Source: a bacterium (lineage in GTDB: Bacteria > SZUA-79 > Acidulodesulfobacterales > Acidulodesulfobacteraceae). Taken from it: 64,000 bases of DNA. The translations under genes were made by a program, and so were the position numbers. The notes beneath the pieces are model-generated. The model was not told where the DNA came from, made no database searches, and worked only from the letters and a program-made list of their open reading frames with translations. The stretch is taken from the NCBI GenBank assembly GCA_003232385.1, contig QIJE01000006.1, positions 7,336 through 71,335 of the forward strand, read 5' to 3'. Position 1 is the first letter of the stretch, and each line of letters starts with the position of its first letter. Positions 3,597 through 63,865 of the stretch are shown here, one piece after another.

Positions 3597-4616
3597 ATGA
3601 TAATGTATAAGACTAAAACTAAAAAATTTAAGGTTTTTTTGTTAAGTCTCGTTATTGTCTTGATGACGCTTACCGCGGGATTTTTCGCATATACGGCTTA
3701 TACTTTCGGTTCGTTATATGCTAAAACCTCCGCGTTCTATTCTCTTAAACAGTCCAATATGATTTTTTTTGGCGGCCAAAAGGGGCTAAGGCTTGTTTAT
3801 CCGTCTATGTCGGGCGGGTCAAACGGCGTTTCCTTTTATTTTGTTTTTACTATGGCGTTGTTATTATTTGCGGGCATTATAATCTTTATGTTCGTCTATT
3901 TTTACAGACTGATAGAAAGCCAGGAAAATACCGAATTGACCTTAAGGTCTGTAGAAAAGAACATCCTTGAAGTACCATCCACTATTATTCATGAAATTAA
4001 GGGTAACATAAATTCGGTCTTAATTAATTCGAGGGTGTTAATTGAGAAGGTTAAAGACATAGAGTCGAATAAAGACGGTATTGTAAAAACCGGCGGTGTC
4101 ATAGGAAGCGAAACCGCGAGGTTGGCTCAAACAATGGATAACATACTTAAGTTTACCAAGGATTACGATTTAAATTTAGAAAACGTCAGCCTTTCGGAAT
4201 TGATAGAAGAGGCATATGAATTGATTGAAAATAGGGTTTCTGCAAAGGGAATTGTATTTTCCGTTTCGGTAGATAGGGATATTAACATTAAAATGGACAA
4301 AGATTTAATGCTTCAGGTTTTTAAAAATCTAATTTTGAATGCCGTCGAATCTTACAAAAGTAAAAAAGGAGAGGTATCGGTCTATTCCTCTTATATTTTA
4401 AATAAGATTTCTCTTGTCGTGGAGGATAATGGAGCAGGTATAGATAAAAAATACATGCGAAAGATTTTTGAACCGTTTTTTACCACTAAAAAAACAGGAG
4501 TAGGGCTCGGGCTTGCATTGACAAAGAATATTATAGACGCTCATGGATTTAATATTAATGTTGATTCGCATAATGGAGTAGGTACAAAGATTTCGGTTAT
4601 CATGAAGGATTTATAA
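3597..4616 (+). CDS. Membrane sensor histidine kinase
   Basis: N-terminal TM segments, H-box-like IIHEIKGNINSV, HATPase_c boxes (LILNAVES, EDNGAGID, GVGLGLALTKNII). Confidence 0.75.
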   Translation: MIMYKTKTKKFKVFLLSLVIVLMTLTAGFFAYTAYTFGSLYAKTSAFYSLKQSNMIFFGGQKGLRLVYPSMSGGSNGVSFYFVFTMALLLFAGIIIFMFVYFYRLIESQENTELTLRSVEKNILEVPSTIIHEIKGNINSVLINSRVLIEKVKDIESNKDGIVKTGGVIGSETARLAQTMDNILKFTKDYDLNLENVSLSELIEEAYELIENRVSAKGIVFSVSVDRDINIKMDKDLMLQVFKNLILNAVESYKSKKGEVSVYSSYILNKISLVVEDNGAGIDKKYMRKIFEPFFTTKKTGVGLGLALTKNIIDAHGFNINVDSHNGVGTKISVIMKDL

Positions 4617-4717: not shown

Positions 4718-6157
4718 ATGAGCGATACGCATAAAAAGTCCATAGTAATATTAATAGTTGAAGATGATGAAGCCTCCCGCATTGGTCTCGCCGATTTTAT
4801 AAAACTCAGCGGCTATAAAGTTTATGAGGCAGATCGCCTTAAATCCGCTTTTGATATTTTAGGCTTAAACGACGGCGATAAGGATAGGATAGATATAGTA
4901 ATTACCGATCTTAAACTTCCGGACGGCACAGGGTTGGATTTATTAAGAGTTATAAAAAAGGACGGAAAGGCTCAAGGTACGGACGTTGTTGTCGTTACGG
5001 GGTTCAGCTCGGTAAAAACCGCCGTAGAAGCGATAAAACTTGGGGCATACGATTATATAACGAAACCGGTAAATCTTGACGAACTCAGCTTAATAATTAA
5101 ACGAATAATATCCAACAAAAACCTTATAGACGAATTAAATACTTTAAAAACAAGGCTTGACGAAAGATTTAATTTCGGCAATCTGATAACTTCATCAAAA
5201 AAGATGATAGATATCGTCAATACCGCAATTACTGTTTCAAATACCAATTCTACCGTATTAATAGAAGGCGAGTCGGGAACAGGCAAAGAATTACTTGCAA
5301 ATATTATAGTTAATAATTCTCGGAGAAAAAATAAGCCTTTTATCAAGGTAAATTGTGCTGCGCTTTCGGAAACGATTTTGGAAAGTGAGCTTTTCGGACA
5401 CGAAAAAGGGGCTTATACCGGAGCGGATTCACTTTATAGGGGGAGATTCGAGATAGCGGACGGCGGAACCATCTTTCTTGATGAGATAGGCGAAGTTTCC
5501 ATGAAAACGCAATCTAAAATATTACGTGTTTTGCAGGAAAAGGAATTAGAGAGAGTAGGCGGGAATAAAACGATCAAGGTGGATATAAGGGTAATAGCCG
5601 CTTCTCAGGATATAGAAAAAAAAGTTTCGAATAGCGAGTTTAGGCGGGATTTGTATTACCGACTTAATGTAATAAATTTAAAACTCATACCCCTTAGGGA
5701 GAGGAAGGAAGATATACCTGTCCTGATAAAGAGATTTTTAGAGGATTTTTCTAAAGAAAACGACAAAAACATTATAGATATAAATAAAGGGACTTTAGAT
5801 ATTTTATTAAGATACGGTTATCCCGGAAACGTAAGAGAATTAAAAAATATAATCGAATATATGGTTGCCGTGGCCGGAGGAGATGTCATAGATGAATCCC
5901 TGCTGCCTAATTACATAAAAGAAAAATATATAGAAAACAAAGAGGAAGAAACAGGGCATGATTTAAAATCGGAGCGGCTTTTTTCAAAGGATTGTATTGA
6001 AATACCCATAGGTGCAACGCTCGAAGATGCGGAAAATTTAATCATACGAATGACACTAAAGATGAATAATTACGATAAGGTTAAAACAGCTAAAGATTTA
6101 AATGTCGGATTAAAGACGATTTACAGGAAATTAGGCAAAACGGCTACGTTAGGCTGA
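4718..6157 (+). CDS. Sigma-54-dependent response regulator (NtrC family)
   Basis: REC domain (VITDLKLPDG), AAA+ domain with GESGTGKE, ESELFGHEKGAYTGA (GAFTGA variant), C-terminal HTH. Confidence 0.85.
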   Translation: MSDTHKKSIVILIVEDDEASRIGLADFIKLSGYKVYEADRLKSAFDILGLNDGDKDRIDIVITDLKLPDGTGLDLLRVIKKDGKAQGTDVVVVTGFSSVKTAVEAIKLGAYDYITKPVNLDELSLIIKRIISNKNLIDELNTLKTRLDERFNFGNLITSSKKMIDIVNTAITVSNTNSTVLIEGESGTGKELLANIIVNNSRRKNKPFIKVNCAALSETILESELFGHEKGAYTGADSLYRGRFEIADGGTIFLDEIGEVSMKTQSKILRVLQEKELERVGGNKTIKVDIRVIAASQDIEKKVSNSEFRRDLYYRLNVINLKLIPLRERKEDIPVLIKRFLEDFSKENDKNIIDINKGTLDILLRYGYPGNVRELKNIIEYMVAVAGGDVIDESLLPNYIKEKYIENKEEETGHDLKSERLFSKDCIEIPIGATLEDAENLIIRMTLKMNNYDKVKTAKDLNVGLKTIYRKLGKTATLG

Positions 6158-49346: not shown

Positions 49347-49375
49347 TTTATATCAGAAAATGCAAATAATTTCAA
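49347..49375 (-). promoter_or_regulatory. Possible cbpA promoter (TTGAAA-17-TATAAA) ending 9 nt before the ATG
   Basis: -35 is the complement of 49370-49375; -10 is the complement of 49347-49352. No SD precedes ATG 49337, which implies a near-leaderless mRNA. AT-rich context. Confidence 0.3.
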
Positions 49376-49379
49376 TAAA

Positions 49380-49427
49380 ATCCATAGCCCTTCTTCTATC
49401 AAGATATACGAAAGAAGGGCTATGGAT
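49380..49427 (-). terminator. Intrinsic terminator of the RiPP operon
   Basis: 16-bp perfect stem (49380-49395 with 49412-49427, core CCATAGCCCTTCTT/AAGAAGGGCTATGG) and a 16-nt loop. On the minus strand it is followed by TTTATTGAAATT. It begins 16 nt after the distal precursor stop. Confidence 0.7.
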
Positions 49428-49442
49428 AGTATTTAACTGTAT

Positions 49443-49562
49443 CTACTTGCAGCCCTTACAAGAATAGCAAGAACCTTTTGCATTATTGTCATTTGTTAAC
49501 ATATTGTAAAATTCTTCTGCCGAAATTTCTTGAATTGACGGTGTCTTGTAAATCTTTTTCAT
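49443..49562 (-). CDS. RiPP precursor peptide, distal copy, 39 aa: MKKIYKTPSIQEISAEEFYNMLTNDNNAKGSCYSCKGCK
   Basis: Hand-translated and below the ORF-track cutoff. ATG 49562, TAG 49445-49443. GGAGGTG SD (complement of 49569-49575) 6 nt from the ATG. C-terminal CxxCxxC. Co-oriented with the PqqD-like and rSAM/SPASM genes. Confidence 0.7.
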   Translation of the reverse strand: MKKIYKTPSIQEISAEEFYNMLTNDNNAKGSCYSCKGCK

Positions 49563-49578
49563 AGATTTCACCTCCTTT

Positions 49579-49615
49579 TTAATTATCGTTATCATAAATA
49601 TATTGCTTATTCAAG
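49579..49615 (-). pseudogene. Relic 3' fragment of the PqqD-like gene carried along by the duplication
   Basis: Identical to 49825-49861, the last 11 codons plus stop of the PqqD-like gene (..LNKQYIYDNDN*). No upstream reading frame. Confidence 0.6.
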
Positions 49616-49688
49616 GAATCCTTGTCCTTTTCCTCACGTCTTCAAAAAATAATTTAAAAGGATGAGGAAACCATGCAATATTAAATGT

Positions 49689-49808
49689 CTACTTGCAGCC
49701 CTTACAAGAATAGCAAGAACCTTTTGCATTATTGTCATTTGTTAACATATTGTAAAATTCTTCTGCCGAAACTTCTTGAATTGACGGTGTCTTGTAAATC
49801 TTTTTCAT
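49689..49808 (-). CDS. RiPP precursor peptide, proximal copy, 39 aa: MKKIYKTPSIQEVSAEEFYNMLTNDNNAKGSCYSCKGCK
   Basis: ATG 49808, TAG 49691-49689, the same GGAGGTG SD. Differs from the distal copy only at codon 13 (GTT Val vs ATT Ile). Confidence 0.7.
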   Translation of the reverse strand: MKKIYKTPSIQEVSAEEFYNMLTNDNNAKGSCYSCKGCK

Positions 49809-49824
49809 AGATTTCACCTCCTTT

Positions 49825-50088
49825 TTAATTATCGTTATCATAAATATATTGCTTATTCAAGAGTATTTTTATTAGGTCGTTAAAATCTTTTTTTACGTCC
49901 GCCTTTGCAACGTCAAATTCGTTTGTTAAGCTTAGTATGATATTTTCATTTGAATTTTCTCCGTCACATAACGATAAGATTTTATGTGATACCTCATTTA
50001 TTTTATAAATATTTCCATTGGAATTATCGAAAAGCATGTAATTTTCTTCTTCATGTTTTATACTCACCGTGCTTGAAAGCATCAGCAT
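49825..50088 (-). CDS. PqqD-family peptide chaperone (stand-alone RiPP recognition element)
   Basis: 87 aa. The pattern YMLFDNSNGNIYKINEVSHKILSLCDGENSNENIILSLTNEFDV...DVKKDFNDLIKILLNKQYI fits PqqD/RRE proteins. AAGGAGA SD. Confidence 0.8.
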   Translation of the reverse strand: MLMLSSTVSIKHEEENYMLFDNSNGNIYKINEVSHKILSLCDGENSNENIILSLTNEFDVAKADVKKDFNDLIKILLNKQYIYDNDN

Positions 50089-50148
50089 TATATGTTCTCC
50101 TTATTTACGATTTCGGTTACGGCTTACGTACCAAACAGTTGCGTAGTA

Positions 50149-51186
50149 TTATATCCAGCATTGCGGATCCTTAGAACTTAAATCTTGATTATTGTGATAA
50201 TAACTTATAGCCTTGCATCCGCCGCACCTTTCACTGTGAGAACAAACGAAGCATTCACTTTTATCGTTTTTCTTTCTCATTTGCCATAAAATATCGGAAT
50301 TATACCAAACTTTAAAGAGACCGTCAGTCAGAATGTTGCCGATTGGTAAATAAAGCCTGCGGCAGGGGAGTAAGGTTCCGTCGTGCAATATGCATATTGA
50401 AGAGAACCCGACAGGGCAATAACCGCCTAAGTTTTCGTCTATTAAATTCCATAGTGGTCTTGAGGTAGAAAGCTCAGTATCTTTATTGGAAAACTCTTTT
50501 TTTGCTTCATTGTATACATTTGAATAAATTGTTTTTAATTCCGATGCCTCAATAAAAAAATCTTGCTCTTCGGTTTTTGTCATGGTTGTCATTCGTTCTA
50601 CCGTTAGCATATCTATATTTAATGAAGCGGCAAGTTTCGGCATATTTGCAGCAGAATCTTTATTTTTATCATGCAGCGTAAACATAATTGATGTTTTTAT
50701 TCCTGCATTTTTCAGCCTTTTAATAGATTCAATCGCTTTCAAAAATGTTCCGGCACCCCTTATTTTATCATGTGTTTCTTCATTGTGACCGTCTAATGAC
50801 ACCTGGATTTCAGATATCTTTTTGTGTTTTTTTAGTTTGATAATCGTATCGTTATTGATTAATGTGCCGTTCGTAAGTATAGCGATATTTTTAAAATTAT
50901 CCGATTGTTCTATCAGGTCTATGAGATAAAAAAGACCCTCCGGTTTCAAAAACGGTTCTCCGCCCGAAAGCGAAATAAAACATTTCATTTTCCATTTAGA
51001 CATAGCGGCATCTAATTCAAAAAATATAGAGTTAAGAATATCAAAATCTATATCTTTATAGTCATAGTCATCTTGATAGCAGTGAATGCATCGCAGGTTA
51101 CAGGAGTCTATGAAATGCCATTGTGCGTAAAAATCGTTATTTATGTGTTTTTTATTATTATAGGAATCCATATTGTATAAACCCAT
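50149..51186 (-). CDS. Radical SAM / SPASM-domain peptide maturase
   Basis: C29-x3-C33-x2-C36 (CNLRCIHC), SGGEPF, and a C-terminal SPASM Cys array (CPVGFSSICILHDGTLLPC, CFVCSHSERCGGC, DPQCW). Only 28 residues precede the SAM cluster, so there is no fused RRE. Confidence 0.9.
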   Translation of the reverse strand: MGLYNMDSYNNKKHINNDFYAQWHFIDSCNLRCIHCYQDDYDYKDIDFDILNSIFFELDAAMSKWKMKCFISLSGGEPFLKPEGLFYLIDLIEQSDNFKNIAILTNGTLINNDTIIKLKKHKKISEIQVSLDGHNEETHDKIRGAGTFLKAIESIKRLKNAGIKTSIMFTLHDKNKDSAANMPKLAASLNIDMLTVERMTTMTKTEEQDFFIEASELKTIYSNVYNEAKKEFSNKDTELSTSRPLWNLIDENLGGYCPVGFSSICILHDGTLLPCRRLYLPIGNILTDGLFKVWYNSDILWQMRKKNDKSECFVCSHSERCGGCKAISYYHNNQDLSSKDPQCWI

Positions 51187-51416
51187 AATCTTGATCGGGT
51201 CTATTCTATCTTTATGTATTTTTATAGGTCAAAATCTTATTCGTATAAATAAACTATATCATATGATTATCTAATTTTCAAATTTGGTTGGCCTCATAAA
51301 AAAATATATTGATTTTTTTTTTAATAATGATATATATATTAACTAACGATGAACAAACCTTATGATACTATTTTAAAAGTTTAATTAAATTAATTTTATT
51401 AAGGAGAGAGTTTACG

Positions 51417-54193: not shown

Positions 54194-54955
54194 GTGAAAA
54201 AAATCTTTGAATTAATTGCAATAGATTTATATCCGGAAATTATGAATATATATGGAGACAGGGGAAACCCCTTCTATTTTAAATACAGGTGTTCTCTTTA
54301 TGGGATAAATCTAAGAGTTTTTGATGTTTCTTTTGAAGCGGAAAAAAGAATTGACATGGATAGGGCGGATATATTCTTTATAGGCGGAGGGCAGGATGCG
54401 GAGCAGGCTTTAATTTATGAAGATTTTATAAAATATAAAAAAAGCGTATTAATGAAAGCCTTGGAAAATGATAAAATAATGCTGGCAATATGCGGCGGTT
54501 ATCAATTATTGTGTGATTATTATAAATCTTTAGATAATAAAATAATTAAGGGAATTTCGGTATTTAGGGGTTATACCGAATCTAAAACGCTTAGATTAAT
54601 TGGAAATATTGCCGTTAAAGCGGAGAATACGGTTTTGGTCGGATTTGAAAATCATGGGGGAAGAACTTACCTGGAAAGAGAACAGAAAGCGTTAGGGACG
54701 GTGCTCAAGGGGTATGGAAATAACGGAAAGAATGGAACGGAAGGGGCAGTGACAGGCAATTTTTTCGGTACATATATGCATGGAAGTTTTTTGCCGAAGA
54801 ACTATATCTTTTGCGATTATCTCATTAATATTGCGCTAAAAAAAAAATATAATGTTTCACTTGAAGAAATTATAAAAATAAATGGAATAGAAATCGATAA
54901 TGATTTTGAAATGAAAGCAAGAAAAGACATAGCCGATCTAAAAAGATTTTTGTGA
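54194..54955 (+). CDS. gatD: Lipid II isoglutaminyl synthase, glutaminase subunit GatD
   Basis: Block-for-block resemblance to S. aureus GatD as I recall it: IFFIGGGQD.EQ, catalytic Cys in AICGGYQLL, YTESKT.RLIGNI, VGFENHGGRTY, GYGNNG, GTYMHG..LPKN. Confidence 0.85.
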   Translation: MKKIFELIAIDLYPEIMNIYGDRGNPFYFKYRCSLYGINLRVFDVSFEAEKRIDMDRADIFFIGGGQDAEQALIYEDFIKYKKSVLMKALENDKIMLAICGGYQLLCDYYKSLDNKIIKGISVFRGYTESKTLRLIGNIAVKAENTVLVGFENHGGRTYLEREQKALGTVLKGYGNNGKNGTEGAVTGNFFGTYMHGSFLPKNYIFCDYLINIALKKKYNVSLEEIIKINGIEIDNDFEMKARKDIADLKRFL

Positions 54956-58990: not shown

Positions 58991-60448
58991 ATGATTTTAA
59001 GATTAAAAATTAAAGCGGAAATTATATTATATTTTTTTTTAAAATACATATTGAACAATGTTTTCAATAGGGAAGGGGATGTTCTGCCCGTTCATATTCT
59101 AAAAAAGATAGATAAAGATACCTTCGATAACTTTGCTTCATATATCCATTCTTACGGCATTCCCATTATTTTTGTGACCGGAACCAATGGAAAAACAACC
59201 ACGGCAAATCTCATTGCGGATACCTTAAGGGCAGCAGGTAAAAATGTATGCGTCAATTCAAACGGAGCCAACATGTCTAACGGTGTGTTCGGAGCCATTA
59301 TCGGCTCATACGGATTATCGACGATAGATAGATTGTTAGGATTAGATTTTCAATTTAATGCTGATTTTATCGTTATTGAGGCAGATGAAAAAGTTTTCCC
59401 TTATCTATCGTCAAAACTAATGCCGAACGTCGTAGTCATTACAAATTTTTATAGAGACCAATTGGATAGATACGGGGAAATCAACACAACGGTTTTTGAG
59501 ATAAAAAGGGCCATAAAAAACCTATCCGGCGATACGATGCTTATTCTACCCTCCTTTGAACCGCTTGCGATGTCGGTTGGTTACGGCATTAATAATCCCA
59601 GAATATATTACGGCTTTAAAAGGGAATTTTTTAAAGAGAAACAATGCCAGGAGAGGGCTGTATCGTCGGATGCTTTAACTTGTCCTTACTGTAAAAAGGT
59701 TCTCTTTAACAGAAAGGATGTTAATCAAAATGTATTTTTACTGAAGTTTAAATGTGAAAACTGCGGTTTTACGAACATAGAACCGGATATATATATTTCG
59801 GGATATAAGGGGGAAAAGATAATAATAAAATCGAATAAAATTGGTGCTGAATATGACGGTAAAACGGATGGGGCACTTTATTCTGATTTTAAACCTGCAT
59901 TATCCGGCGATTACAATATGGCAAATTATTTGGCTGCTTACTCGGTTTTAAAGAATTATAAAATTAAAAATGATATCATAATACCTTCATTCGAGAATTT
60001 TCAGACAAAATTTGGCAGGTCGTTTAAGAAATATGTAGGAGATTTAGAGATAAACATTGACCTTGTTAAGAATCCTACCGGATTAAGTAGAGTTTTGGAG
60101 AAAATAACAGACGTGTACAATAATGACTTGCCTTTTATAGATATTTTATTTGCATTTTCCGATAGGGATGCCGACGGAAGAGATGTTTCATGGATTTGGG
60201 ATGTGGAGTTTGAAAAATATGTCAAAGACATAGGAAAGATTATTATTACAGGGCTTCGCCCGTTTGATATGGCAATAAGGTTAAAAACGGCAGGCGTAGA
60301 CAAGAGCCTTATTTCGATAGAGCATAATCTAAAAAAATCATTAAAAAAAATCATTAAAATAGGGAGGTCGCAAGTCTCTTCCAATAAAAAAGTTTTCATT
60401 TTATCTACTTATACGGAGCTTTTAAGAATCAAAAAGTACATAATGTAA
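58991..60448 (+). CDS. murT: Lipid II isoglutaminyl synthase, Mur-ligase-like subunit MurT
   Basis: P-loop GTNGKTTT, Cys4 ribbon CPYCKK...CENCGF, C-terminal DUF1727-type motif DADGRDVSWIWD. Confidence 0.85.
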   Translation: MILRLKIKAEIILYFFLKYILNNVFNREGDVLPVHILKKIDKDTFDNFASYIHSYGIPIIFVTGTNGKTTTANLIADTLRAAGKNVCVNSNGANMSNGVFGAIIGSYGLSTIDRLLGLDFQFNADFIVIEADEKVFPYLSSKLMPNVVVITNFYRDQLDRYGEINTTVFEIKRAIKNLSGDTMLILPSFEPLAMSVGYGINNPRIYYGFKREFFKEKQCQERAVSSDALTCPYCKKVLFNRKDVNQNVFLLKFKCENCGFTNIEPDIYISGYKGEKIIIKSNKIGAEYDGKTDGALYSDFKPALSGDYNMANYLAAYSVLKNYKIKNDIIIPSFENFQTKFGRSFKKYVGDLEINIDLVKNPTGLSRVLEKITDVYNNDLPFIDILFAFSDRDADGRDVSWIWDVEFEKYVKDIGKIIITGLRPFDMAIRLKTAGVDKSLISIEHNLKKSLKKIIKIGRSQVSSNKKVFILSTYTELLRIKKYIM

Positions 60449-60892: not shown

Positions 60893-61708
60893 ATGAAATT
60901 ACTTTCTTCAAATGCGTTTGTCGTATATGCAAAAAAAATAAACGAAGCGGATATGCTTTTAAGTTATATTACCGAGGATTACGGAAAGGTCACTTGTTTT
61001 GCCAATAATGCGAGAAAGAGCAGAAAAAGGTTTCTCGGCAAGTTAGAGCCCGCAATGCTAACCAAGATAAAATTTTATGAAAAGCCGGGAATGACCTTAG
61101 ATATTTTGTATGAAGTAGATTTAGTGGAAGATTATAAGAATTTAAGAAAAAATATAAATATTTACTTATTTTTAACTAAGCTCATTGAAATTCCAAGGAT
61201 TTTATGTCAGGAAAGAGATAATAATAAAAATATTTTTTATTTGATGAAGAATATTTTCAAGGGCCTTAATAATTTAAATATTGAAGATATAGATAATGAA
61301 GGTAAATCTGCAGGATATGGGCATATTTCCATAAACGCCATACTAATCAAATACGACATTTATTTTCTTTCAAATCTGCTACGATATATGGGCATATTTC
61401 CAAATTTTTATAATTGCATTATTTGTTCGGAAAAAAATCTTGGCAATAGTTTTGATTTTAGTTTGAATAGAGGCGGAGTTGTTTGTAGTTCGTGTATCAA
61501 AGATAAAAGTAATGAATTTAAATACTCGGAAGTTAAAAAGTTACCGGTTAATTTTATAAATTTATCAAATTTAATGGCTGAGTCAAACTTATCAATAATA
61601 AATAAGTTAGCGGTAAAAGAGGAAATTTTAGTAGAGTGTTCGATATTTTTAAGGGATTTTTTGTCTTTTCATACCGGTAAAAGATTAAGATCTTTTGAAA
61701 CAATTTGA
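60893..61708 (+). CDS. recO: DNA repair protein RecO
   Basis: OB-fold N-terminus (AFVVYAKKINEADMLLSYITEDYGKV) and Cys4 finger CIICSEK...CSSC. Confidence 0.8.
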   Translation: MKLLSSNAFVVYAKKINEADMLLSYITEDYGKVTCFANNARKSRKRFLGKLEPAMLTKIKFYEKPGMTLDILYEVDLVEDYKNLRKNINIYLFLTKLIEIPRILCQERDNNKNIFYLMKNIFKGLNNLNIEDIDNEGKSAGYGHISINAILIKYDIYFLSNLLRYMGIFPNFYNCIICSEKNLGNSFDFSLNRGGVVCSSCIKDKSNEFKYSEVKKLPVNFINLSNLMAESNLSIINKLAVKEEILVECSIFLRDFLSFHTGKRLRSFETI

Positions 61709-61731
61709 TTAATGAAACAAATAATATAAAA

Positions 61732-63171
61732 ATGCGAAATAATAAAAATAATATACTTAGGCAGTTTCCAAGTATGCAGGCTATACTTAAAAATCCGGAG
61801 GTCGTTCGACTTACGGAATCGTTTTCGTATGAGTTTGTAAAGGAAAGGTTAGGCGACTTAATTAAACTAAAAAAAAATGAAATTCTTGGCACTATTGATT
61901 CGAATGATGAATTCGGGATACCGTACAATTATTATCTTACCGTCGAATTTTTTACGGAAAAACTTAAAGAAGATCTAAATGATTTTTCTTTTAGTCTTAA
62001 AAGAGTCATTAACGGAACCGGCGTTGTCGTCCATACAAATTTAGGTCGTTCAATACTGTCTAAGAGCGCGGTTGATAATATCAGTAGAATTTCATCATCG
62101 TATTCTAACTTAGAATTTAATTTGGCAGAAGGCGAAAGAGGAAAAAGATATTCTCATGTAGAGTATCTTTTGAAAAAAATCATAAAATGTGAGAAAGCTA
62201 TAGTCGTAAATAATAATGCGGCTGCCGTATTTATGACATTATCGTCATTCTGTTCCGGGCAAAAGAAAGAGGTCATAGTTTCAAGAGGAGAGCTTGTAGA
62301 GATAGGAGGTTCTTTTAGGATACCGGATATAATGAGAGCATCCGGCGCTGTTTTAGTCGAAGTAGGAGCAACTAACAAGACTAGGCCGGAGGATTATGAA
62401 TCTAATATAAATGAAAACACCGCATTATTACTGAAAGTGCATCAAAGCAATTTTAGAATGGTCGGTTTTGTACATGAATTGTCAAGTAAGGATATTGTTT
62501 CTATCGGAAAAAAATATAGGATACCGGTTGTGGAGGATCTGGGCTCCGGCAGTTTTATAAATTTAAGTCGGTTTGGTCTTCCCTATGAACCCACTGCTCA
62601 GGAGGTTGTAAGTACAGGAATGGATGTTGTTACTTTTAGCGGTGATAAATTGCTGGGCGGACCCCAAGCCGGAATAATAGCCGGAAAGAAGAAATATATT
62701 GATATGATCGCGACAAACCCTTTGAATAGGGCTTTTAGGATAGACAAGATGACCATAGCTTCATTAGAAGCAACTCTATTCGAGTATTTAGATATGGAAA
62801 ATGCAGTTAAAAAAATACCTACGCTTTCCCTTATCGCTCAATCCGAACAGGATATTAAGAAAAAGGCAAAAAAATTTTTAAATAAACTTAAAAAATTTGA
62901 ATGGAAAAATAAAAATTTATATAATTTTAAGATATTAGAGGATCTGAGTATTGTGGGTGGAGGTGCTCTTCCTGATTATGGGCTTAAGACCTATGCTTTA
63001 AGCATTACGCATAAAACAATGAGCGCTGATAATCTTAGCAAAATTTTCCGCGGTTTGAATATTCCGATTATCGGAAAAATAAAAAACGCAGAATTTTTGC
63101 TTGACATGAGAACTGTATTAGACACAGATTTTAAAGATATTTTATACGGGTTGTCGATAATTGATATATAG
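61732..63171 (+). CDS. selA: L-seryl-tRNA(Sec) selenium transferase
   Basis: The ORF is open from TTG 61705; ATG 61732 gives MRNNKNNILRQFPSMQ. INGTGVVVHTNLGRS, VVNNNAAAV, VSRGELVEIGGSFRIPD, PLP-lysine motif FSGDKLLGGPQAGII.GKK. Confidence 0.9.
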   Translation: MRNNKNNILRQFPSMQAILKNPEVVRLTESFSYEFVKERLGDLIKLKKNEILGTIDSNDEFGIPYNYYLTVEFFTEKLKEDLNDFSFSLKRVINGTGVVVHTNLGRSILSKSAVDNISRISSSYSNLEFNLAEGERGKRYSHVEYLLKKIIKCEKAIVVNNNAAAVFMTLSSFCSGQKKEVIVSRGELVEIGGSFRIPDIMRASGAVLVEVGATNKTRPEDYESNINENTALLLKVHQSNFRMVGFVHELSSKDIVSIGKKYRIPVVEDLGSGSFINLSRFGLPYEPTAQEVVSTGMDVVTFSGDKLLGGPQAGIIAGKKKYIDMIATNPLNRAFRIDKMTIASLEATLFEYLDMENAVKKIPTLSLIAQSEQDIKKKAKKFLNKLKKFEWKNKNLYNFKILEDLSIVGGGALPDYGLKTYALSITHKTMSADNLSKIFRGLNIPIIGKIKNAEFLLDMRTVLDTDFKDILYGLSIIDI

Positions 63172-63268: not shown

Positions 63269-63865
63269 ATGATATCTTCAAGTGTTCTTGTTTTAAATAA
63301 ATCCTTTTTACCTGTGCATGTGACCTCCCTGAAAAGAGCATTTATTCTTTTTTATCAGGGTATCGCCAAAGCCGTGGACAAAAATTATAGAACATTTAGT
63401 TTTGATTCATGGGCAGATCTTTCCGTTATTGACGGATATAATTCAATTGGACTCGTGAATAGGATGATAAGGGTGCCAAGCGTGATAATTCTTACTAATT
63501 ACGATAAGCTGCCGAGAAGATATGTCAAATTTTCAAGAGCCAATATATTTTTAAGAGATAAAAATAAGTGCCAATATTGCGGTAAGGAATTTAAAAAAAA
63601 TGATTTAAATTTGGATCATGTTATTCCGAGGATGCGCGGTGGCGTTTCGTCTTGGGAAAACGTGGTATGCAGTTGTATTCCGTGTAATCGCAACAAGGGT
63701 GGCAGGACGCCGGAGGCGGCGGGAATGAAGCTTATAAAAAAGCCCATAAAACCGGGGTGGTCTTCGTATTATCATATATCGCTTACTAATATCATGTATA
63801 AAGAGTGGATGCCCTTCTTAAGCCTCGTAGATAATGCGTACTGGCATGTAGAATTAGATAAGTAG
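63269..63865 (+). CDS. HNH endonuclease family protein
   Basis: CQYCG...LNLDHVIPRMRGGVSSWENVVCSCIPCNRNKGGRTPEAAGM. Confidence 0.8.
   Translation: MISSSVLVLNKSFLPVHVTSLKRAFILFYQGIAKAVDKNYRTFSFDSWADLSVIDGYNSIGLVNRMIRVPSVIILTNYDKLPRRYVKFSRANIFLRDKNKCQYCGKEFKKNDLNLDHVIPRMRGGVSSWENVVCSCIPCNRNKGGRTPEAAGMKLIKKPIKPGWSSYYHISLTNIMYKEWMPFLSLVDNAYWHVELDK

Follow-up and report, generated by a model that had tools for sequence, protein, structure and literature searches.

A minus-strand operon for an enzyme, a recognition protein and two peptides

The window analysed here is the whole 64,000-nucleotide (nt) stretch of contig QIJE01000006.1 (assembly GCA_003232385.1, positions 7,336 to 71,335), from an Acidulodesulfobacter-like bacterium. 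Four co-oriented genes lie on its minus strand within 49371–51281. They encode a radical S-adenosylmethionine (rSAM) enzyme with a SPASM domain, a small PqqD-type protein and two nearly identical 39-residue peptides. Judged from their sequences, the four genes probably form a peptide-maturation system that acts on a Cys or selenocysteine (Sec) core. The features are as follows.

50149–51186, minus strand: rSAM/SPASM enzyme gene, 345 amino acids (aa), assigned from Pfam and Cys motifs
49825–50088, minus strand: stand-alone PqqD-type recognition protein of the kind used for peptides that are made on the ribosome and modified after translation (RiPPs), 87 aa, Pfam PF05402
49815–49821, minus strand: ribosome-binding site GGAGGTG of copy A, 6 nt 5' of the ATG
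49689–49808, minus strand: precursor peptide copy A, 39 aa, Val13, family profile match at E ~1e-20
49569–49575, minus strand: ribosome-binding site GGAGGTG of copy B, 6 nt 5' of the ATG, inside the duplicated unit
49443–49562, minus strand: precursor peptide copy B, 39 aa, Ile13, the variant present in the single-copy relative L088
49442–49861: tandem duplication with units 49442–49615 and 49688–49861, 174 nt each, 99% identical, 246-nt spacing
49371–49436, minus strand: long hairpin (inverted repeat) 3' of copy B, the likely operon terminator
51203–51281, minus strand: two weak candidates for sigma-70-like promoters, upstream of the gene for the enzyme, from a consensus scan only

A preliminary description of this DNA had reported the enzyme with C29-x3-C33-x2-C36 and a full SPASM Cys array, only 28 residues before the SAM cluster and no fused recognition domain, the 87-aa PqqD-like protein, and two 39-aa open reading frames (ORFs) with GGAGGTG 6 nt from the ATG. 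All of these are present as reported, and Pfam agrees on the enzyme. The hairpin that it placed after the peptides as a terminator is also there, measured here as two arms of 25 nt (49371–49395 and 49412–49436) that are 88% complementary with 16 nt between them. A simple terminator scan gave no call at this hairpin, whose loop of more than 8 nt exceeds the limit of the scan. The promoter candidates, TTGAAA-17-TATAGT and TTGACC-18-TAGAAT, are no more numerous than expected in shuffled sequence.

The same description had called the peptides invisible among the listed ORFs. This was mistaken, as the ORF list holds them as 50-aa ORFs that start at an upstream ATG overlapping the end of pqqD. The public gene call P0132 adopts the same upstream start. 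The 39-aa form is favoured here on the strength of its ribosome-binding site and of the orthologues; at orthologous loci GGAGGTG likewise precedes the peptide ATG. The enzyme may also start later than annotated, at Met6 (51171), as its orthologues have 338–339 aa.

Both peptides read MKKIYKTPSIQE(V/I)SAEEFYNMLTNDNNAKGSCYSCKGCK and differ solely at residue 13. Each 174-nt unit consists of the 3' end of pqqD (its last ~35 nt), a short spacer with the ribosome-binding site, and the peptide gene. Strain L088, whose enzyme is 96% identical, has one peptide gene only, of the Ile variant. Together with the near identity of the repeats, this indicates that the peptide gene was doubled recently, at the level of the strain, that the doubling does not characterise the family, and that copy B is the ancestral copy.

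A conserved peptide family with a fixed frame

Copy A has the leader residues Y5-x-x-P8-x-I10 and F18, and the core C32-Y-S-C35-K-G-C38-K. When six-frame translations of all loci were searched with the family profile, both copies were matched at E ~1e-20. The fixed frame of the family is Y-x2-P-x9-F-x13-C-x2-C-x2-C. A profile search returned 669 clusters at 90% identity, and an exhaustive search returned 212 clusters at 50% identity (E ≤0.001) from bacteria and archaea. An alignment of 13 peptides contains no indel from Tyr5 to Cys38, with Y5, P8, F18, C32, C35 and C38 invariant. In a set of 36 sequences P8 is ~90% conserved, while Y5, F18, C32, C35 and C38 are still invariant.

No family peptide contains a Pfam domain, and all are unnamed. 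None is matched by an NCBIfam release 20 model, even at E = 10. The peptide thus lies outside the families named in the preliminary description, as stated there. Literature searches by core sequence and topic, which covered text other than figures and subscription journals, found no description of the family. Three subtypes can be distinguished.

T1: ...EEIWEEFNGGNW-CFGC(T/S)NCNCN, in many bacterial phyla
T2: ...EKFNGGRF-CxQCS(S/G)CHGCR, in archaea and several bacterial groups
T3: MKKxYxxPLFxEIPAEEFYxLIxxxYGxKDS-CYS(C/U)KxCK, the subfamily of the window

The window's subtype is the minimal form of the system. T1 clusters also carry an amidohydrolase_2-GNAT fusion and a class II aminoacyl-tRNA-synthetase-like protein, T2 clusters carry an asparagine-synthase homologue, and both have a squalene-hopene-cyclase-like toroid protein of ~300 aa. 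These extra genes follow the peptide in L006/L007 (5600–9000), L013 (4465–7040), L014 (4535–7050) and L016 (4461–7040). Two unrelated carboxylate-activating enzymes at the same position in T1 and T2 suggest an amidation or ligation step.

Two details of the window's peptide were found to be local. An NDNN stretch upstream of the core had been proposed to supply crosslink acceptors, and a Gly had been placed before the core. Orthologues read ...MEGYGIKD or TEGYGLKD... at the former and mostly have Asp at the latter. Since the NDNN stretch is specific to the window strain, it is unlikely to supply conserved ranthipeptide-type acceptors.

The PqqD-type protein and the leader motif

The 87-aa protein matches PF05402 with 42.8 bits (cut-off 23.4, E 6.7e-11). 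Its NCBIfam matches are weak and all below cut-off, namely PqqD (35.1 vs 46), WgkC and lasso PqqD chaperones. In all inspected loci whose enzyme is at least 35% identical, the PqqD gene follows the enzyme gene, except in the decayed locus L009.

An intact family peptide lies beside the rSAM-PqqD pair in 13 of 17 distinct loci, usually directly after PqqD and on the same strand. This bears out the earlier proposal that the enzyme, the discrete PqqD protein and the leader-core peptide are one RiPP-type system. The lineages with all three are Desulfitibacter (Bacillota), Thermopirellula (Planctomycetota), a Lachnospiraceae metagenome-assembled genome (MAG), a Desulfobacterales MAG, a Thermoplasmatota MAG, Candidatus Methanoperedens and the Acidulodesulfobacter-like lineage of the window. 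A metagenome scan with the single enzyme sequence gave one locus, L088; the wider sampling came from exact-protein look-ups. Chance ORFs were rejected as an explanation of the peptides on grounds of conservation and context, as the peptide frame recurs beside the enzyme pair across phyla and domains.

In lasso-peptide and linear polyphosphorylated peptide (LPP) pathways, discrete PqqD-like proteins bind the motif [Y/W]xxPx[L/V/I/F/A], of which Tyr and Pro are required for complex formation (PMC13381572). The leader described here, Y-x-x-P-x-(I/L/F), fits this published motif. The likeness extends to the discrete PqqD-like protein of ~90 aa and to the position of the motif near the precursor N-terminus. 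The difference from those pathways is that the window encodes neither a lasso cyclase nor a B2 protease or kinase, and that the partner is an rSAM enzyme; T2 clusters do carry an Asn-synthase homologue.

The enzyme lies outside every curated family

Pfam assigned Radical_SAM to enzyme residues 25–179 (E 2.3e-22) and SPASM to residues 257–315 (E 4.7e-7), and 613 database relatives were found at E ≤1e-10. Ten Cys are invariant among 120 homologues, namely C29, C33 and C36 of the SAM cluster and the seven SPASM residues C257, C275, C312, C315, C321, C324 and C343. C265 is Cys in only 58 of the 120, and there is no conserved eighth SPASM Cys. This pattern, with a three-Cys first auxiliary cluster, is one that we take to match CteB (PDB 5WGG). 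Because seven SPASM Cys are invariant with no eighth, and with the CteB structure in mind, we infer three protein Cys ligands and one open iron for the first auxiliary cluster.

The AlphaFold2 (AF2) model of the enzyme is confident, with a predicted local distance difference test (pLDDT) score of 85.5. Its closest solved folds are SkfB, SuiB, anSME and CteB, with template modelling (TM) scores of 0.67–0.75, and the closest PDB sequences are SkfB, anSME, CteB and PqqE. The four enzymes with the closest folds all have peptide substrates: Cys is the target of SkfB, anSME and CteB, and SuiB makes a Lys-Trp link.

Comparison with NCBIfam had been named as a check of the enzyme in the preliminary description. 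In release 20 the enzyme scored far below every cut-off, as follows.

ACGX (TIGR04340): 133.3 bits, cut-off 400; best similarity
SbtM (TIGR04082): 129.7 bits, cut-off 350; second-best, aligned to model positions 199–515 only
GeoRSP: 130 bits, cut-off 400
NirJ2 and AhbD: 106–116 bits, cut-offs of 500
MftC: 93.9 bits, cut-off 265
PapB: 91.7 bits, cut-off 340
StsB: 81.1 bits, cut-off 625
AlbA: 66.8 bits, cut-off 850
SkfB: 58.7 bits, cut-off 300

The T1 and T2 enzymes and a clade at ~30% identity likewise fall below the NCBIfam cut-offs, and the SbtM model gives 135–174 bits in other subfamilies.

The NirJ2 and AhbD scores, which reach 170 bits in other subfamily members, would fit an enzyme that works on tetrapyrroles or another small molecule and has the short ORFs beside it by accident. 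All of these scores are far below 500, heme d1 or alternative heme genes were not found nearby, and PqqD and a conserved peptide accompany the enzyme. We therefore regard such a function as extremely improbable.

ACGX, the best match at 133 bits, misses its cut-off of 400 and differs in its substrates. ACGX-like substrates are repeat tails of proteins of 300–720 aa, whereas here the substrate would be a 39-aa leader-core peptide. In the ACGX-like examples examined, profile scans found no PqqD, and no systematic check was made. Enzyme homologues with 26–36% identity adjoin such 300–720-aa proteins in L020, L021, L027, L037, L040, L053, L064, L071 and L072. These proteins end in (SSC)n or (GGC)n, often followed by GGGGAD, as ACGX-like, protein-sized substrates.

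The ~30%-identity rSAM/SPASM clade comprises L029, L036, L039, L045, L049, L051, L065 and L077, from Nitrospirota, Syntrophales, other Deltaproteobacteria and Dehalococcoidia. Just upstream of its enzymes lies a different peptide family, ...(E/A)xFW...GKxC(Y/F/R/L)xCKxCK(S/GK), with a core similar to CYSCKGCK of the window. In this clade neither a PqqD gene nor a matching NCBIfam model was detected.

Most T3 orthologues encode selenocysteine at the central core position

The peptide gene of L010 ends ...GAT TCG TGC TAC TCC TGA AAG GAA TGC AAA TGA. Its in-frame TGA aligns exactly with the TGT codon for Cys35 in the window. The gene order of L010 is also that of the window, with bioF-bioC-pal, then enzyme-PqqD-peptide, then cbpA-merR-bioB. 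A search limited to T3 returned 22 clusters, of which 14 stop exactly at ...SCYS, 7 are full-length Cys forms and 1 (P0250) is called with Trp. P0250, from an ENA contig of 550 bp, has Trp at both TGA positions (...SCYYWKECKKWNVQVAHKK...); a code in which TGA is Trp was apparently applied, and we treat it as an example of mis-annotation.

The DNA of 20 Sec-type loci with 9 distinct peptide sequences was examined, and the codon is TGA in all. It is followed by Lys-(Ser/Glu)-Cys-Lys(-Lys) and then a real stop. In three of the four codons after the TGA, those for Lys, Cys and Lys, there are synonymous changes only (AAG/AAA, TGC/TGT and AAA/AAG).

A hairpin of the form (A)GCGC-AGUUN-GCGC(U) or AUGUGC-AGUUG-GCACAU starts 15–19 nt after the UGA and resembles a selenocysteine insertion sequence (SECIS). 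Its loop, AGUUN or GUU/GGU, lies 19–22 nt from the UGA, its stem has 4–8 bp, and its folding energy is −7.4 to −13.7 kcal/mol. The published bacterial SECIS model has a 3–9-nt apical loop with a G within the first two loop positions, a 4–16-bp stem, a UGA-to-loop distance of 16–37 nt and an energy limit of −7.5 kcal/mol (PMC13188914). The Sec-type hairpin agrees with this model in loop, G, stem and spacing. The folding energy is borderline in 3 of 11 distinct sequences (−7.4 vs −7.5 kcal/mol), and in 2 further sequences of the 11 the minimum-energy fold of the 48-nt segment lacks the hairpin. All 37 base-pair cells examined are paired, with one compensatory change, from C-G to U-A. A separate, larger hairpin further downstream is the likely terminator.

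Two further features of the window bear on Sec.

61705–63171, plus strand: SelA, L-seryl-tRNA(Sec) selenium transferase (TIGR00474, 569.6 bits vs cut-off 267.9)
49420–49442, minus strand: decayed SECIS remnant 3' of copy B, with CAGTT in register, 18 nt after the Cys35 codon

As the window encodes SelA, the lineage would own at least part of the Sec machinery. Within the 64-kb window selB, selC and selD were not found, and ARAGORN detected no tRNA. The stem bases of the remnant are mutated and no stable hairpin forms at 49420–49442; L088 has the same relic at ~4000–4020. Since the CAGTT loop survives in register while the stem is lost, the sequences suggest that Sec reverted to Cys in the window and in L088 and that the SECIS then decayed.

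One apparent second case of Sec was rejected. P0341 is a truncated T2 peptide ending ...FCMQ; the codons that come after its TGA are unrelated, and its neighbour is a gene for a phage terminase. A fragment of this type, ...FCMQ-TGA, lies in L102 at 1223–1375, directly before a phage small-terminase gene in a prophage-like context.

The 2026 catalogue of prokaryotic selenoproteins has no CxxUxxC entry, and its sole peptide natural product is selenobacteriocin (TIGR04081, SGUG).

Proposed modification of the core

The following mechanism is proposed. The 87-aa PqqD protein likely recognises the 39-aa peptide by its N-terminal leader, binding the Y-x-x-P-x-I motif, and likely presents the peptide so that its core is delivered to the enzyme. 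The enzyme would carry the SAM cluster and two auxiliary Fe-S clusters, one of them held by only three protein Cys. Its target would be the C-terminal core C-Y-S-C-K-G-C-K, 13 residues past the conserved Phe. The fixed 13-residue spacing between F18 and C32 would suit an enzyme that gauges the distance from the bound leader to the active site.

A core chalcogen, most likely that of the central Cys, would then probably bind the open iron of the first auxiliary cluster. In PapB and Tte1186 the substrate Cys or Sec sits directly on the auxiliary cluster, with an Se-Fe contact when the substrate is Sec-substituted (PMC10177961). The 5'-deoxyadenosyl radical would abstract a hydrogen in or beside the core. 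The outcome would be either thioether crosslinks of the sacti- or ranthipeptide type, with a mass change of −2 Da for each link, or, as with SbtM or anSME, a Cys oxidised at its beta-carbon (−4 Da, thio-oxazole).

With crosslinks, each core Cys or Sec would be joined to a carbon of another residue to give a rigid polycyclic peptide, essentially as the preliminary description had proposed. SkfB and CteB, among the closest solved relatives, are thioether synthases, and the presumed match to the CteB cluster arrangement points the same way. PapB and Tte1186 also accept Sec and form Se-C links (PMC10177961). Like ranthipeptide or SCIFF systems (CteB, PapB, Tte1186), the present one combines a SPASM enzyme, whose first auxiliary cluster has three Cys and would bind substrate Cys, with a short, Cys-rich, strongly conserved precursor in a minimal gene cluster; in those systems such a gene cluster often has no protease or exporter. 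In contrast to CteB, whose recognition domain is fused, the window's is separate. Its three Cys form CxxCxxC in place of CxxxD/T repeats or six Cys in 45 residues, and there are no conserved Asp, Asn or Thr acceptors. The NDNN acceptors are not conserved either, and the three subfamilies have no acceptor residue in common. The enzyme misses the cut-offs of the sactipeptide families AlbA, SkfB and StsB as well as that of PapB, with only 59–92 bits against 300–850. In addition, locking costly natural Sec into an inert selenoether would have no known precedent or obvious benefit. Thioether formation is thus a real but doubtful possibility.

The second outcome would turn the central residue into a thio(seleno)oxazole, or into a related oxidised form in which S or Se is still reactive. 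Among the NCBIfam models SbtM ranks second for this enzyme (129.7 bits here, 135–174 in other subfamilies), with its catalytic half aligned, and anSME is among the top structural matches. The SbtM/selenobacteriocin system (TIGR04082 enzyme, TIGR04081 peptide, a thio(seleno)oxazole RiPP) is also the only known one in which an rSAM-modified peptide alternates naturally between Sec and Cys with a SECIS right after the UGA. It shares with the present system the rSAM/SPASM enzyme, the short peptide and this alternation, which occurs in orthologues and not in the window, where the codon is TGT. Against such chemistry, the score is far under the SbtM cut-off of 350, and SbtM has a fused N-terminal domain of ~190 aa where the present enzyme has none and a separate PqqD instead. 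No family peptide matches TIGR04081. The SbtM peptide carries (S/G)-G-U-G, probably with two Sec, whereas here there is a Y-x-x-P leader with a C-x-x-U-x-x-C-K tail, and in the window's subfamily the central Cys is not preceded by Gly. Selenobacteriocin is found in Geobacter and Desulfobacteria, and the present branch in an Acidulodesulfobacter-like lineage. On balance, oxidation of this kind is rather unlikely.

Because most orthologues encode Sec at the centre of the core, the central chalcogen would be the functional centre of the product, either a redox site or a metal ligand. This argues that the Se or S atom stays chemically active there.

Variation of the locus among relatives

The neighbours of the operon in the window, namely genes for biotin synthesis, Pal and CbpA, give no clue to its function. 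Related loci show six arrangements.

Full operon, Sec peptide: L008, L010, L011, L098/99, L103-109
Full operon, Cys peptide: window, L088
Sec peptide alone at the bio locus: L089-92, L095-97, L100-101
PqqD and peptide only: L093/94
Enzyme-PqqD without peptide: L001-3 (beside rhodanese); L110-115 (between lipid A genes and rpsT)
Decayed peptide, no detectable PqqD: L009 4671–4835

L008 has two extra Cys paralogues upstream of the enzyme. In L009 a TAA/TAG stop interrupts the peptide frame after ...TPLFQ, and the last Cys of the peptide is replaced (SCHSCKQYKK).

The orphan Sec-type peptides sit between pal and cbpA (~6001–6120) and are complete with ribosome-binding site, TGA, KSCK and hairpin. 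In L096, a 55-codon remnant of the enzyme N-terminus (5822–5986) lies directly upstream of the intact peptide. Either the enzyme acts in trans on these peptides or they function unmodified. One sample series is the source both of L113-115, which have the enzyme and no peptide, and of the orphan peptide L100, and their G+C is similar (0.34–0.35). We read this as a system that may be split between two loci.

Unmodified function would mean that the peptide acts on its own, as a mini-selenoprotein or thiol peptide whose CxxU/UxxC motif serves redox or metal binding, and that the enzyme-PqqD pair is dispensable or devoted to another substrate. Intact Sec-type genes lack an adjoining enzyme and PqqD in three distinct lineages, with L096 keeping only the enzyme remnant. 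CxxU and UxxC are classic redox motifs of selenoproteins (PMC13188914), and NicO, Nramp, ferritin, HMA, rhodanese and thioredoxin-like genes neighbour some loci. On the other side, the leader motif and the fixed leader-core spacing across two domains make sense only for presentation to an enzyme. Moreover, peptide-less enzyme-PqqD pairs (L001-3, L110-115) exist in the same lineage and sample series as the orphan L100/L101, which fits a split system. An unmodified peptide is accordingly improbable.

Genes for redox or metal functions occur near several T3 operons. They encode thioredoxin-like 87-aa and GcvH-like proteins (L103-L106, 1607–2351), a NicO Ni/Co transporter (L098, 3509–4546), a rhodanese (L002, 5835–6551), Nramp and ferritin (L093, 1697–3055 and 6285–6749) and also HMA. 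The metal/redox trend is suggestive and inconsistent across loci.

Assessment of the system

Beyond the reading as a minimal RiPP-type system with a CxxC/UxxC core, here in a Cys form, a more far-reaching interpretation would make the operon in the window a Cys-reverted member of a second, independent family of Sec peptides matured by an rSAM enzyme, with the core C-x-x-U-x-x-C-K and a separate PqqD. The product would be a small intracellular Se redox or metal-binding peptide cofactor. The wider family, which occurs in archaea and many bacterial phyla and includes the CFGCTNCNCN and CxQCSSCHGCR types, would form an ancient and new class of cofactor-like modified peptides. We give this interpretation as a whole a probability of roughly 0.45.

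Several observations weigh against the main reading, a peptide-maturation system with a Sec branch. An E-value-mode search of three Sec-type loci with Rfam returned no match to a SECIS family, and covariation in the hairpin amounts to the single compensatory pair. The core residues shared across subfamilies are the three Cys only, which leaves no acceptor that could be named. In some genomes an intact Sec-type peptide occupies the same chromosomal spot with no enzyme or PqqD adjoining. Finally, the operon encodes no protease or exporter. This last observation, taken with the unusual conservation of the whole peptide, would also point to an intracellular, cofactor-like role for the product and not to a variable antibiotic.

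Parallels for such a role are pyrroloquinoline quinone (PQQ) and mycofactocin, intracellular cofactors that arise from very small, strongly conserved precursors; their systems (PqqA/D/E and MftA/B/C) likewise pair an rSAM/SPASM enzyme with a chaperone of PqqD type. The present system differs in that PqqD scores 35.1 vs 46 and MftC 93.9 vs 265, the peptide has no E-x3-Y or GVY, and no downstream pathway enzymes are encoded in the window.

Other genes in the window

Right after selA, a 198-aa ORF (63269–63865, plus strand) gives a weak match of HNH type to the RNA-guided nucleases IscB/Cas9d, at 46.7 bits and far under the cut-off. A small HNH nuclease, or what is left of a mobile element, may be encoded here. 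Two plus-strand genes at 54194–54955 and 58991–60448 resemble GatD and MurT, the subunits of lipid II isoglutaminyl synthase, with 186 and 208 bits, below the cut-offs. Together with Pal (and LpxK in relatives), such genes are an unusual combination for a diderm.

Significance

The system appears to consist of an rSAM/SPASM enzyme and a PqqD-type recognition protein from a large undescribed family, with an unrecognised selenocysteine branch. One rSAM-modified peptide family with natural Sec is on record, SbtM/selenobacteriocin with (S/G)GUG. A second family, if true, with another motif, another recognition architecture and another lineage, would make Se-containing ribosomal peptides a recurring invention. 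The Cys form in the window offers an easy entry to the biochemistry, as Sec insertion in E. coli is unnecessary. Beside lasso peptides and LPPs, the family would be a third case in which the YxxP leader code is used. With ~200 clusters at 50% identity in both prokaryotic domains, unusual conservation and no database model, it stands where PqqA and MftA stood before their cofactors were recognised.

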